From NCBI GenBank assembly GCA_964580495.1, contig CAZOKE010000002.1, positions 1-53,134 of the forward strand: a stretch of 53,134 bases of DNA, written 5' to 3'. Below, in pieces: positions 21,296 through 30,194 of the stretch. The stretch is from an uncultured Candidatus Saccharibacteria bacterium. GTDB lineage: Bacteria > Patescibacteriota > Doudnabacteria > UBA920 > O2-02-FULL-48-8. Numbering within the stretch: the stretch's first letter is position 1; the number at the start of each line of letters is the position of its first letter. The translations under genes were made by a program, and so were the position numbers. The notes under the pieces were generated by a model that saw only the letters and a list, made by a program, of their open reading frames with translations, ran no database searches and had not been told where the DNA came from.

Positions 21296-21955
21296 TTAGA
21301 GGCTATTTTCTATTTTAACCAAATCATTGTAAACGGATTGGTTGTTCTGGACCCAATGGTCTTTGGGCGGCTGTTTGTAAACTCCGTTCATCTGTTTGAA
21401 AGTCATGTCTGAGTATTTCAGCAGGGAATTGTTCGGGTAAGCGTTTAGAAAATTATTCATCGTAATAATGCCTTCCCCGAGGTTGGATCCCATATACCAC
21501 AAATCGCTTCCGCCTATCCCCCAGCAATTGGCTTTGTCAGCAGGATAATGTTTGCAAAACGAGCTTTCGGCATTGGATAGCGCGATTATTTTTTTCCAAT
21601 TGTTGAGCTGGATTAGAGTTGAAGCGTAATTTGCCAAAGGCGAACCCTGCGCGCGCAAGTAGTTTCTGACCCTGGCCGCAAGCAGCAGCTGCCTGTCCAA
21701 ATCTTTCTGCATCTGTTTGCGTTCAAAGTACTTGGTCAACTGCAAGTTCAAATTATTCAGATAAGTGACCTGGTCGCCAATGACAAAGATCATAGAACCG
21801 CTGGTTCGCCCGTCCGGTATTGACGAAGCAAACGTTTCGTGCGGCAGCAGAAAAGTTATGAGGCTAAGCAGAGTGATTATGATTCCAAATTTGTGTTTCA
21901 GTGACAGGCTTAAGTAAGTTGCCTTAAGCGGCCGGATTTTTTTGATAATATCCAT
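21296..21955 (-). CDS. Membrane-anchored protein with a possible lysozyme-like domain (paralogue A)
   Basis: 219 aa, N-terminal TM segment. Conserved core GSPLANYA...NWKKIIALSNAESSFCKH...NCWGIGG is shared with the 22568..23209 protein. TTGACC-N17-TAAAAT promoter upstream. Confidence 0.55.
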   Translation of the reverse strand: MDIIKKIRPLKATYLSLSLKHKFGIIITLLSLITFLLPHETFASSIPDGRTSGSMIFVIGDQVTYLNNLNLQLTKYFERKQMQKDLDRQLLLAARVRNYLRAQGSPLANYASTLIQLNNWKKIIALSNAESSFCKHYPADKANCWGIGGSDLWYMGSNLGEGIITMNNFLNAYPNNSLLKYSDMTFKQMNGVYKQPPKDHWVQNNQSVYNDLVKIENSL

Positions 21956-22077
21956 TATTCAGTGGGAAATAATGTTTATTTGATTTCGACAAAATTTTAT
22001 CAGGAACTGACAATTGGGTCAACGCTGATATGTGGATTGCTTGTGGGAGAATAAAAAAACACCATTGGTGTTTTAAT

Positions 22078-22167
22078 TGGTGCCTGGGGAGGGAATCGGT
22101 CACAACTCGCTTCGCGGTTGCGACCCCGCCTCATCCGCCTGCTGGCGGATTCCGGCTTTCGATTCCC
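22078..22167 (-). pseudogene. tRNA-Leu 3'-end copy (21 nt including CCA) closing a ~90-nt three-helix unit. Either a tRNA-derived small RNA gene or an att-like scar.
   Basis: 22078-22098 is identical to 22213-22233 (tggtgcctggggagggaatcg). Helices: gggaatcg/cgattccc (22091-98/22160-67), atccgcc/ggcggat (22133-39/22144-50), gtcacaac/gttgcgac (22099-106/22117-24). The last has a G-U pair only on the minus strand. A terminator hairpin (22055-22075) follows the CCA. Confidence 0.5.
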
Positions 22168-22212
22168 ACAAAACTGCCACTGGCAGTTTTGCAAGTACCT
22201 TTTTGTAATTCT

Positions 22213-22299
22213 TGGTGCCTGGGGAGGGAATCGAACCCTCAATCCCTTGCGGGCCTGGGATTTTAAGTCCCATGCGTATGCCAGTTCCGCCACCCAGGC
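22213..22299 (-). tRNA. tRNA-Leu (anticodon UAA)
   Basis: Reverse complement folds as a cloverleaf with a long variable arm. Anticodon loop CTTAAAA. CCA is encoded. Confidence 0.9.
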
Positions 22300-22303
22300 A
22301 TTG

Positions 22304-22377
22304 TGGAGGCGTCAACCGGAGTTGAACCGGTGTAAAAGGTTTTGCAGACCTCTGCCTAACCGCTCGGCCATGACGCC
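22304..22377 (-). tRNA. tRNA-Cys (anticodon GCA)
   Basis: GGCGTCA/TGACGCC acceptor stem, anticodon loop CTGCAAA, T-arm ACCGG-TTCAACT-CCGGT, CCA encoded. Confidence 0.85.
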
Positions 22378-22567
22378 ATCGTCGCAGCTGGTCGAACTCC
22401 GCAAATCGCTTTCGGCGATTGTGTTCCGGTCGACTTGCTGCTCCTCTCAATTTAAAATGCTCTAGAAGGTCTTTTAATCAGCTGTGCATTTTAAATTGTA
22501 GAAGGTCTCCAATATTATACTTTTGTTTTAAGAAATTTTAAAGCCCTCCGCTAAGGAGGGCTTTATT

Positions 22568-23209
22568 TTAGTCGACCATTGGTAATTGGTTGACTTGATT
22601 CAAAGTTTGAGAAACCGCGGCAACCCATGATGGTGAATAGGAACCCACATAGCGGTTTACAATTTCCTTCGGAGTATCAGCACCGCGGGCGACATATTTG
22701 TTGGTAATCAAATTGTCGACATCCACGATTCCTTCATCCAAAGAAGAGTAACGCTTCATGTTCCAGGCTCCGCCAATGCCCCAACAGTTGTTGTACATTT
22801 GATGTTTGCACATCGTGGATTCACCGTTGGAAATGGCTAAGACCAGCTTCCAGTTTTGGCTTTTCAGCAAAGTGTCGGCATGGTCAGCCAGAGGAGAACC
22901 TTTCTGTGAAAGGTAGGCCTGGAGGATCGCGACGTTTTGATCAAAATTCGCTTGTTCGATTTGGGCTTGCTGGGCAGCTATTTCTTCCGCAGTCGGAGTA
23001 TCATTCTGGTCGGTATAGTTAGTCGGGATTTTTATTGTTGAAAGATTTTTTATTTCAAAGACGATTGCTGTTTGTTTGCCAGCCACTGGGGCTGGTAAAT
23101 CGGTTGAAGCAGCTGCTCTGTATGGGAGCAAGACTAAGCTTGTCGCGGCAATCAGGATTATCAGTAAGGCCTGATCGATTACGCTTAACCGATTGAAACG
23201 GCTTGTCAT
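22568..23209 (-). CDS. Membrane-anchored protein with a possible lysozyme-like domain (paralogue B)
   Basis: Core GSPLADHA...NWKLVLAISNGESTMCKH...NCWGIGG. The ATG at 23209 has an aaggaa Shine-Dalgarno-like sequence. The track ORF starts at a TTG at 23227. Confidence 0.55.
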   Translation of the reverse strand: MTSRFNRLSVIDQALLIILIAATSLVLLPYRAAASTDLPAPVAGKQTAIVFEIKNLSTIKIPTNYTDQNDTPTAEEIAAQQAQIEQANFDQNVAILQAYLSQKGSPLADHADTLLKSQNWKLVLAISNGESTMCKHQMYNNCWGIGGAWNMKRYSSLDEGIVDVDNLITNKYVARGADTPKEIVNRYVGSYSPSWVAAVSQTLNQVNQLPMVD

Positions 23210-23330
23210 CTTGAATTCCTTGCTCAATATTCATCCTTATGAATCCCGGCCAGCGGAATTTTGGCTCCACCAGCTGATGGGTAAGGACAAATAATGGGTT
23301 TGGTATGACCTTTATTAATTAATAAAGAAC

Positions 23331-29851: not shown

Positions 29852-29861
29852 GAGGACGCTC

Positions 29862-29984
29862 GGGCATGTGTTTCATTTGAATACGGGTCCTGTCACGATT
29901 TTTACCCCGCCAGTGCTCGCTTACGCTGCGCGCTGTCAGGGTCCCCAAAATCGTGCCACCCGCTTTGAGATGAAACACATGCCC
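29862..29984. repeat. Nested inverted repeat (~123 nt) immediately 3' of tRNA-Pro
   Basis: gggcatgtgtttcat (29862-76) pairs perfectly with atgaaacacatgccc (29970-84). Inner pair is cacgatttt (29894-902) with aaaatcgtg (29947-55). The core gtgctcgcttacgctgc (29913-29) recurs as gtgctcgcttatgctgc (30080-96). Confidence 0.85.
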
Positions 29985-30194
29985 TCGCTAGAAAAAAGAA
30001 GAGCTCGCGAGGTTGTCCTCAAAAAACAGCTATCCTTCGCTAAAGAGAATTTATGGCTCCTGACGCAATTTTCCTCACCGTGCTCGCTTATGCTGCATGC
30101 GAGTGGGGCCCCAATGAGCTTTTGAAACATTATTTATATAAGCGTGAGGTGAAACCAACTGATCTAATTAAAATTATTAAATTTAAACTTAAAT

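Follow-up and report, generated by a model that had tools for sequence, protein, structure and literature searches.

A structured, gene-less element of the tRNA-linked repeat (TLR, RtT-like) kind appears to be present as a single intact copy at positions 22078-22212, on the minus strand, of the 53,134-nt stretch of contig CAZOKE010000002.1 from an uncultured Candidatus Saccharibacteria bacterium, the whole of which is referred to as the window. We assign a probability of about 0.6 to this reading, in which the unit would be an RNA made as the trailer of a tRNA operon, would have originated by duplication at the DNA level, would be inherited, and would be lost through its own repeats. Judged by its GyrA, which shows 80-88% identity to metagenome-assembled genomes of this name, the host is a member of Candidatus Doudnabacteria. 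The genome of the window is designated G000 and its relatives carry other G numbers, while L and C numbers denote extracted loci and contigs, respectively.

The window contains exactly two copies of the 21-mer TGGTGCCTGGGGAGGGAATCG, one at 22078-22098 and one at 22213-22233; two matches were seen in 0 of 100 shuffles. Read on the tRNA strand, the repeat (CGAUUCCCUCCCCAGGCACCA) corresponds to nucleotides 56-76 of tRNA-Leu(UAA), starting with C56 in the T loop and closing with the encoded CCA. The proximal copy (22213-22233, minus strand) is part of the tRNA gene and the distal copy (22078-22098, minus strand) lies downstream of it; their starts are 135 nt apart with 114 nt in between, and the repeat reaches 22 nt when a shared flanking base is included (22077-22098 and 22212-22233). 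The exact duplication, the offset and the length of the intervening segment had been recognised in a first-pass annotation made from the letters of this DNA, and all of them were confirmed. The annotation had further described a minus-strand fold of three helices of 8, 7 and 8 bp in a unit of ~90 nt. A fold was indeed found on this strand, the 163 nt of 22050-22212 reaching -72.2 kcal/mol compared with -44.2 +/- 4.0 kcal/mol for shuffles (z = -7.0). However, the helices P2, P3, P3a and P4 comprise 7-8, 3, 7 and 12 bp, the last with two G.U pairs, and the structured unit, which is itself real, exceeds ~90 nt by a 10-bp hairpin, P1.

The unit begins 1 nt past the CCA of tRNA-Leu and is read on the same, minus strand. 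An A+U-rich spacer, AGAAUUACAAAAAGGUACUUG (22192-22212; 21 nt, 29% G+C), is followed by P1, CAAAACUGCC-AGU-GGCAGUUUUG (22169-22191 in the minimum free energy fold), and by an arm termed antiT, GGGAAUCGAA (22158-22167), which is the reverse complement of nucleotides 54-63 of tRNA-Leu and forms the 5' strand of the closing helix P2. The conserved core (22099-22157), delineated from folds, RNAalifold, pair counts and the covariance model described below, contains J2/3 (AG), P3 (GCC/GGC), P3a (AUCCGCC/GGCGGAU), J3/4 (GG) and P4 (GGUCGCAACCGC.../...GCGAGUUGUGAC(C)), and its 3' end is GUGAC. In the distal copy, C56 pairs into P4, nucleotides 57-63 are the 3' strand of P2, and nucleotides 64-76, UCCCCAGGCACCA, form an unpaired 13-nt tail ending in CCA. 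P2 joins GGGAAUCG of antiT to CGAUUCCC of the tail copy (22161-22167 with 22091-22097), and P2, P3 and P4 meet in a three-way junction with zero unpaired bases between P4 and P2, C56 being stacked into P4. An acceptor-like pairing of the tail (GGUACUUG with CAGGCACC), possible in the window, was ruled out since it is absent in G018 and G013. The G+C content was 61% in the unit, 68% in the core and 45.6% in the genome. The open reading frames (ORFs) at the inter-repeat segment overlap the tRNA genes.

When 40 relatives were searched at the DNA level, a probably orthologous unit was found behind tRNA-Leu(UAA) in G018, which belongs to a different genus. The core of ~75 nt was also found behind tRNA-Asn, Ser, Lys, Tyr and Val in G013, behind tRNA-Lys(CUU) in G002 and tRNA-Arg in G018, and additionally behind a Glu gene among the relatives; the arms were tRNA-specific, and both were those of the neighbouring tRNA in every case in this search. 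A covariance model of these class 1 units, R1, has the window copy in its seed alignment and scores it at 115 bits. R1 detected units in 5 of 25 genomes of the family, in 6 of 146 genomes of the order and in 8 of 151 genomes of an even sample of the phylum, the last yielding 29 further units with at most 6 per genome, among which 27 had an upstream same-strand tRNA and 15 a repeat of exactly 21 nt (C56 to A76). In addition, at least 120 contigs of public genomes had matches to a core pattern; when 80 of these loci were checked with R1, it confirmed 78 units in public metagenome-assembled genomes. Their hosts were Saccharibacteria, Parcu-/Paceibacteria, Kaiser-, Morani- and Berkelbacteria, WWE3 and Elusimicrobia; the best unit of Elusimicrobia, independent of the seed, scored 83.6 bits and lies behind tRNA-Arg with a 21-nt repeat. 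One of these public units lies behind a tmRNA gene, and 49 of the 78 are at most 100 nt behind a same-strand tRNA or tmRNA (chance, ~0.3%). More than 100 further copies were found by R1 in Patescibacteria and Elusimicrobia, nearly all of them immediately behind a tRNA or tmRNA gene, and the structured element recurs behind more than 20 different tRNA species with arms matching each tRNA. The window unit bears the class 1 signature: P1, antiT, a core of GCCGGA...GAGGCGGGGUCG...GUGAC and a tRNA tail from C56, all behind a tRNA.

A tRNA-, tmRNA- or Y-RNA-like identity, for which the annotation had recommended a covariance-model scan, was not borne out. Rfam 15 gave no match on the unit at the gathering score and, with E up to 10 over 21900-22600, none on 22050-22212 to tRNA, tmRNA, Y RNA, RtT or ribozyme families; ARAGORN made no call on the unit. 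A description of such a tRNA-linked family in Patescibacteria was not found in the literature, and a preprint on bacterial tRNA mimics treats other motifs. In IMG/VR, the strict core pattern had 0 matches, and a looser pattern combined with R1 identified one contig, IMGVR_UViG_3300033463_005745 (L306, 2837-3197), with two class 1 units; these viral-labelled units score 61.5 and 25.8 bits and have T-arm-like tail copies, and ARAGORN detected no tRNA in the 3.3 kb examined. Metagenome scans for the empty allele and the filled junction of the window's species gave 0 each, the population of this species not being represented there.

Conservation of the fold was evident from the pattern of base changes. 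RNAalifold recovered P1-P4 from nine units, with compensatory changes in 16 of 38 pairs. Pair counts were also made on alignments fitted to the model, so that the pairing percentages are somewhat inflated: in the 78-unit alignment, 94% of cells were standard pairs, compared with 36-42% when the partners were slid by 1-3 columns, and P1, the first helix of the family, was 92.6% paired. Both-side changes were found in 35 of 38 pairs of this alignment and in all 9 modelled pairs of P1, one G.U pair of P4 was retained in 73 of 76 rows, and no shuffle attained any of the pair measures. The ratio of G.U to A.C over both model alignments was 297:44 (54:12 in P1, 27:14 in P2 and 34:9 in P3a among the variable helices). 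Since neutral decay of a DNA palindrome would give equal numbers and folding of the other strand the reverse ratio, this excess indicates that the tRNA-sense strand folds. If the tRNA-sense strand were not under selection, the asymmetry and the slid controls would be difficult to account for; they point to RNA as the selected molecule, one single-stranded DNA form being less likely. The 114 nt between the repeats are a conserved structured element with compensatory changes and not the random spacer that the annotation had set against its own proposals.

The antiT arm follows the neighbouring tRNA. T loops of UUCAAAU, UUCAAGU and UUCGAGU are accompanied by antiT arms ending in AUUUGAA, ACUUGAA and ACUCGAA, respectively, and the odd T loop UGCAAAU of tRNA-Tyr in G000, whose unit belongs to a sister class described below, by AGGAUUUGCA, which contains AUUUGCA. 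The antisense arms are perfect over 11-13 nt in G013 and extend over 7-12 nt outside it, with occasional G.U pairs or mismatches, and one subtype has GAGAA instead of UCGAA beside the core. Judged from these correspondences, antiT is a true inverted copy of the T arm of the neighbouring tRNA. A retained T-stem/loop was ruled out, since its sense form would be GGGUUCGA. A unit with a matching arm could conceivably be seeded at a new tRNA in three ways: the template could be switched at the UUCGA microhomology, which is universal, with a hairpin-templated correction afterwards; P2 could be selected for; or a dedicated trans-acting activity could be at work.

These features bear directly on the first of two explanations offered in the annotation, namely an att scar left by a lost element. 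The repeats would then be the attL and attR of a tyrosine-integrase element that had entered the T loop of tRNA-Leu and whose interior has been lost. T-loop integration does leave a direct repeat that spans the tRNA from its T loop to its 3' terminus (Islander, PMC4383910; Ms6, PMC1762012), and the repeat here starts in a loop, at C56, as expected for such a product. However, the 114-nt interior is a conserved covarying fold that recurs behind more than 20 tRNA species with tRNA-specific arms, the antisense arm is not an integrase product and is unexplained by integration, and the GUGAC to the left of the distal T-loop copy does not recreate the T-stem core site. Neither an integrase nor a remnant of one was found between or beside the repeats, and a Phage_integrase search of the genome gave only two matches, on contigs C10 and C11, none being on the window's contig, in agreement with the annotation, which had noted that no integrase is nearby. 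An att scar is highly improbable.

With respect to the origin of the distal copy, lineages whose tRNA genes lack CCA mostly lack it in the distal copy too, and the repeat often extends into the trailer (19-61 nt in total), indicating that the copy was made from genomic DNA and not from mature tRNA. In G000, all 43 tRNA genes and the tmRNA gene encode the CCA end. A retro-copy of mature tRNA by reverse transcriptase was ruled out, as RVT_1 is absent from the unit carriers G002, G013 and G018 and the copies lack non-encoded CCA. Comparison of the orthologous locus, which the annotation had proposed, revealed three states of the tRNA-Leu(UAA) site. It is empty in eight relatives (G001, of the same genus, and G003, G004, G005, G007, G009, G012 and G016), where tRNA-Leu is directly followed by a terminator; it carries a class 1 unit in G018; and in G023 (L010, G023:C1, ~638.6 kb) it holds two identical tandem units of the second, or sister, class, with the core GGGCAGAAGUGA...CUGCCCCGGACAG, their own antiT GGAAUCGAA and a 19-nt tail copy each.

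The Leu unit of G018 has a P1 identical to that of the window at 22 of 23 positions and a related spacer. The tRNA-Leu of G018 shows a compensated acceptor change from G-C to A-U and its distal copy has the same C-to-U change; therefore, the copy tracks the tRNA, by gene conversion or selection. The cores, on the other hand, cluster by genome and not by tRNA. The nearest core of all five units of G013 is in G013 (94-98% identity) and that of all three units of G018 is in G018, where the Leu core is 95% identical to the Arg core, while no other core is more than 81% identical to the Leu core of the window, the nearest being the Arg core of G018. P1 of G013 differs strongly between near-identical cores and is common only to the Asn and Tyr units, which have the same T arm and antiT. 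We take this to mean that gene conversion limited to the core has acted among older units, each specific to its locus; recent hops with re-targeting may also have taken place. Through the 21-nt repeats, units could be lost precisely or amplified in tandem.

Units of the sister class are present in G000 downstream of tRNA-Ile(GAU) (C10:25484-25560), tRNA-Trp (C1:14316-14389), tRNA-Tyr (C1:20221-20307) and tRNA-Glu(UUC) (C8:20967-21041). They have the core GGGCAGAAG.GAG...CGUCGAC-hairpin-GCGCUGCCC, an antisense arm of 8-11 nt each and some covariation in the fold. Their tail copies are perfect for Ile and decayed for Trp, Tyr and Glu, and on C1, ~40 nt past the distal tail copy of both the Trp and the Tyr unit, orphan antisense arms (TAGGAAUCGAA and TAGGAUUUGCG) are found with no core or tail copy after them.

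Part of this pattern would also be produced by an active mobile element, either protein-less or mobilised in trans: a miniature insertion element targeting the tRNA T loop, in which an unknown trans-acting enzyme or the folded nucleic acid itself joins GUGAC to C56, duplicating the tail and writing the antisense arm, and in which the fold is conserved for mobility, as single-stranded DNA or RNA, and not for the host. Presence in close relatives is patchy, several near-identical cores are found on different tRNAs of one genome (the five of G013), the perfect arms of that genome exceed the minimal need of a stem, and the same tRNA-Leu site is empty, filled by class 1 or occupied by two second-class units across relatives, all of which speak for such an element, as do a junction fixed at GUGAC|C56 with C56 stacked into P4 and the other selfish cassettes, with small GIY-YIG nucleases, that the tRNA genes of these genomes host. 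No linked enzyme was found, however: RVT_1 does not co-occur with the units, no unit lies beside the small GIY-YIG genes examined, and the contig has no integrase. Moreover, the variation of P1 in G013 despite near-identical cores fits core-limited conversion between old copies better than recent hops, the Leu units of G000 and G018 have P1 but not the core in common, and the tolerance of G.U pairs, one of them conserved, argues for a constraint at the RNA level. We regard an active mobile element as possible, though rather unlikely. A more specific form is doubtful: a protein-gene-less mobile element whose core would be a catalytic or enzyme-recruiting nucleic acid and whose antisense arm would be a guide docking on the 3' strand of the T loop/T stem of a tRNA gene or transcript, placing GUGAC next to C56 for joining, with the E. 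coli TLRs as old relatives of the same mechanism.

The small GIY-YIG nucleases were considered as the enzyme of the unit and rejected, no link being shown and the genes sitting in different cassettes that duplicate tRNA 5' parts. Besides UvrC, G000 has seven small free-standing GIY-YIG ORFs (~100-146 aa; contigs C3, C6, C7, C11, C15, C17 and C20), none of which is on the window's contig, and relatives have 4-11 each; no structured unit adjoined any of the 12 such genes examined. Directly 3' of tRNA-Pro(CGG) in the window, a nested inverted repeat with a G+C-rich core was observed (29852-30125), and the same tRNA-Pro in G002 (L069) has in front of it a broken 5' copy, which is accompanied by a double-hairpin insert and a small GIY-YIG gene.

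The unit is located inside the tRNA-Cys/tRNA-Leu transcription unit. tRNA-Cys(GCA), the first gene (22304-22377; 62.8 bits), and tRNA-Leu(UAA), whose CCA is encoded (22213-22299; 58 bits), were both identified on the minus strand by ARAGORN and Rfam, with tRNA-Leu starting 4 nt after tRNA-Cys. A consensus scan predicted a sigma-70-like promoter, TTTAAA-17-TATAAT, upstream on the same strand (22514-22542; 10 of 12 matches), and found no promoter-like site on that strand between tRNA-Leu and the structured unit. Downstream, a terminator scan identified a terminator-like hairpin, AAAACACC-AAU-GGUGUUUU, followed by a U run (22056-22074, minus strand), so that the promoter and terminator of the tRNA operon bracket the unit. 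The annotation had assigned this hairpin and T run to the unit as its own terminator. The structure itself stands but, since the empty sites of relatives show tRNA-Leu directly followed by a terminator, it is most simply, and probably, the original terminator of the tRNA operon. Its second explanation, a tRNA-derived small RNA gene, comes closer than the first and is incomplete: it holds for the two arms, which are tRNA-derived, but not for the core, and the unit, lying within the tRNA-Cys/Leu transcription unit, lacks its own promoter. The interpretation in the annotation was thus partly right, in that the unit is RNA-like with tRNA-derived ends and is not a scar.

In our preferred reading, as the position of the unit suggests, it would form the 3' trailer in the transcript of the tRNA-Cys/tRNA-Leu operon, which would run from the promoter at ~22514-22542 to the terminator at 22056-22074. 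From this position and the E. coli precedent, the nucleases that release the tRNAs would also cut out the unit, whose 5' end would be shielded by P1 and whose 3' end by the tRNA-like closing helix, in parallel with what has been proposed for RrA, RrB and RrF. A duplicative event copying genomic DNA from C56 onward, and not mature tRNA, would have created it; the orthologous copy in another genus suggests subsequent inheritance. Recombination between the 21-nt repeats would cause precise loss and leave the empty sites of relatives, and gene conversion would homogenise the core among the copies of one genome. The unit is most likely a persistent, semi-selfish passenger of tRNA operons.

Several points weigh against this reading, besides the fitting of the pair-count alignments to the model. 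We know of no mechanism for writing a target-specific antisense arm inside an element. Transcription and processing of the unit are inferred from its position, and several relatives have a strong terminator between the tRNA and the unit, so that expression there would need read-through. In addition, units are absent in 20 of the 25 family genomes, including one of the same genus, and multi-copy bursts on different tRNAs occur in single genomes; this patchy distribution and these bursts fit an active mobile element at least as well as they fit vertical descent with loss.

A benefit to the host has also to be considered. The unit could be a regulatory or housekeeping small RNA, for example a sponge or a protein-binding RNA, in which the tRNA helix and CCA tail serve maturation and the core binds a conserved partner. 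The invariant junction nucleotides and the conserved G.U pair across phyla, as well as the tracking of the tRNA acceptor change by the distal copy of G018, are consistent with such a role, for which RrA, RrB and RrF, which bind Hfq and CsrA, and the sponge 3'ETS-leuZ of the E. coli glyW-cysT-leuZ operon are precedents (PMC8144298). Yet the unit is dispensable, being absent from most close relatives and present in 0 to 6 or more copies, it sits behind any tRNA without a common gene context, and the sister-class tail copies decay in G000. A host-beneficial RNA is improbable on this evidence, and we keep to the semi-selfish passenger.

Several features surround the tRNA pair. Two 219-aa paralogues without a Pfam match (21296-21955 and 22568-23227, minus strand) flank it and are kept beside it in relatives in differing arrangements. 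The distance from tRNA-Cys to tRNA-Leu is 4-10 nt in the window and most relatives, and in G018 (L036 323-455, G018:C13) the two genes are parted by a hairpin-rich insert of ~130 nt. Between the promoter and tRNA-Cys, a structured leader of ~125 nt (22379-22503, minus strand) abuts the 5' end of tRNA-Cys, with the consensus ...GAGAGGAGCAGCA.GUCGACCG-hairpin-UUGCG.AGGUUCGACCAGCUGCGACGA. Paralogues of this leader are found in G000 directly before tRNA-Arg(GCG) (C26), tRNA-Glu(CUC) (C28) and 5S rRNA (C31), and matches are present in several relatives; the leader looks like a second module family, on the 5' side of stable-RNA genes.

The more than 100 copies offer material on the way in which antisense arms are written to match their target and on the role of the RNA, and R1 is a model with which such units can be annotated. 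The window offers a single intact copy that has an ortholog in a different genus, is missing from the corresponding site of a genome of its own genus, and shares its genome with a sister class. The case is also a warning that duplicated tRNA 3' ends in small genomes should not be read as integration scars.

Two kinds of known repeats resemble the unit only in part. Like attL/attR in the T-loop sublocation of tRNA and tmRNA genes, it comes with a direct repeat of the tRNA that starts in the T loop and closes at the 3' terminus, and with an intact tRNA (PMC4383910, PMC1762012), but it differs from them in the 114 nt between the repeats, the absence of an integrase, the conserved folded interior, the antisense arm and the occurrence of its core behind many tRNA species. 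With the repetitive extragenic palindromic sequences REP/REPIN and miniature inverted-repeat transposable elements, it has in common that it is short, gene-less, hairpin-rich, multi-copy and patchy, whereas its inverted arms are copied from the target and not from the element, its position at the tRNA 3' end and its orientation are strict, its G.U pairing is strand-specific and no transposase is linked.

The E. coli TLRs are closest. Known since 1978, they still lack an agreed origin or function; they have been defined for E. coli (Egan & Landy 1978; Rudd 1999; reviewed in PMC8144298). They comprise 22 units at ten loci, each closing with an exact 18-19 bp copy of the 3' end of the preceding tRNA or 5S rRNA; this repeat is proposed to subject the unit to the 3' processing of the upstream RNA, processing of RrB has been described, and the binding of Hfq and CsrA by RrA, RrB and RrF is the one exception to the lack of an established function (PMC8144298). 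In the tyrV-rttR region of E. coli K-12, we found that GGGGAAGGAU of the 178-nt unit is the reverse complement of AUCCUUCCCC, which belongs to the tail copy of tRNA-Tyr. Together they close a branched core, a free CACCACCA (...CCACCA tail) follows, and the curated RtT structure of Rfam (RF00391) includes exactly this helix. The window unit likewise lies directly behind a tRNA in the same orientation, as do the tyrT/tyrV 178-bp repeats and rttR, and ends in a copy of the tRNA 3' end including CCA (21 of 21 nt identical). As in RtT, an internal antisense copy and a sense copy of the 3' region of the T stem close a branched core and leave the acceptor strand and CCA unpaired; tandem arrays are also found in both, and a subtype of the Patescibacteria units has GAGAA after the antisense arm, as in E. 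coli. In contrast to RtT, there is no similarity by sequence or covariance model: RF00391 was not among the matches up to E = 10 on 21900-22600, whereas E. coli units scored 134-138 bits in the same search. The core fold is also different, the repeat starts at C56 and has 21 nt instead of starting at A58 with 18-19 nt, an extra 5' hairpin (P1) is present, there is no small ORF like tpr, and the hosts are Patescibacteria and Elusimicrobia. By its position and sequence, the window unit is a TLR by the positional definition and not a member of the Rfam RtT family. RrA, RrB and RrF, which lie behind 5S rRNA in E. coli rrnA, rrnB and rrnD, are similar in being non-coding units between the end of a stable-RNA gene and the terminator, with a 3' copy of the upstream RNA's end proposed to direct the same 3' processing (PMC8144298); they differ in following 5S rRNA, in carrying GGA motifs and in binding Hfq and CsrA, nothing comparable being seen in the window unit, for which no such test was made. 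The TLR design, in which antisense and sense copies of the T arm and 3' end close a branched core, is thus present in Patescibacteria and Elusimicrobia with a different core that is strongly conserved and covarying. Since the same design occurs in two distant bacterial groups, the TLR phenomenon appears to be general and not an enterobacterial oddity.

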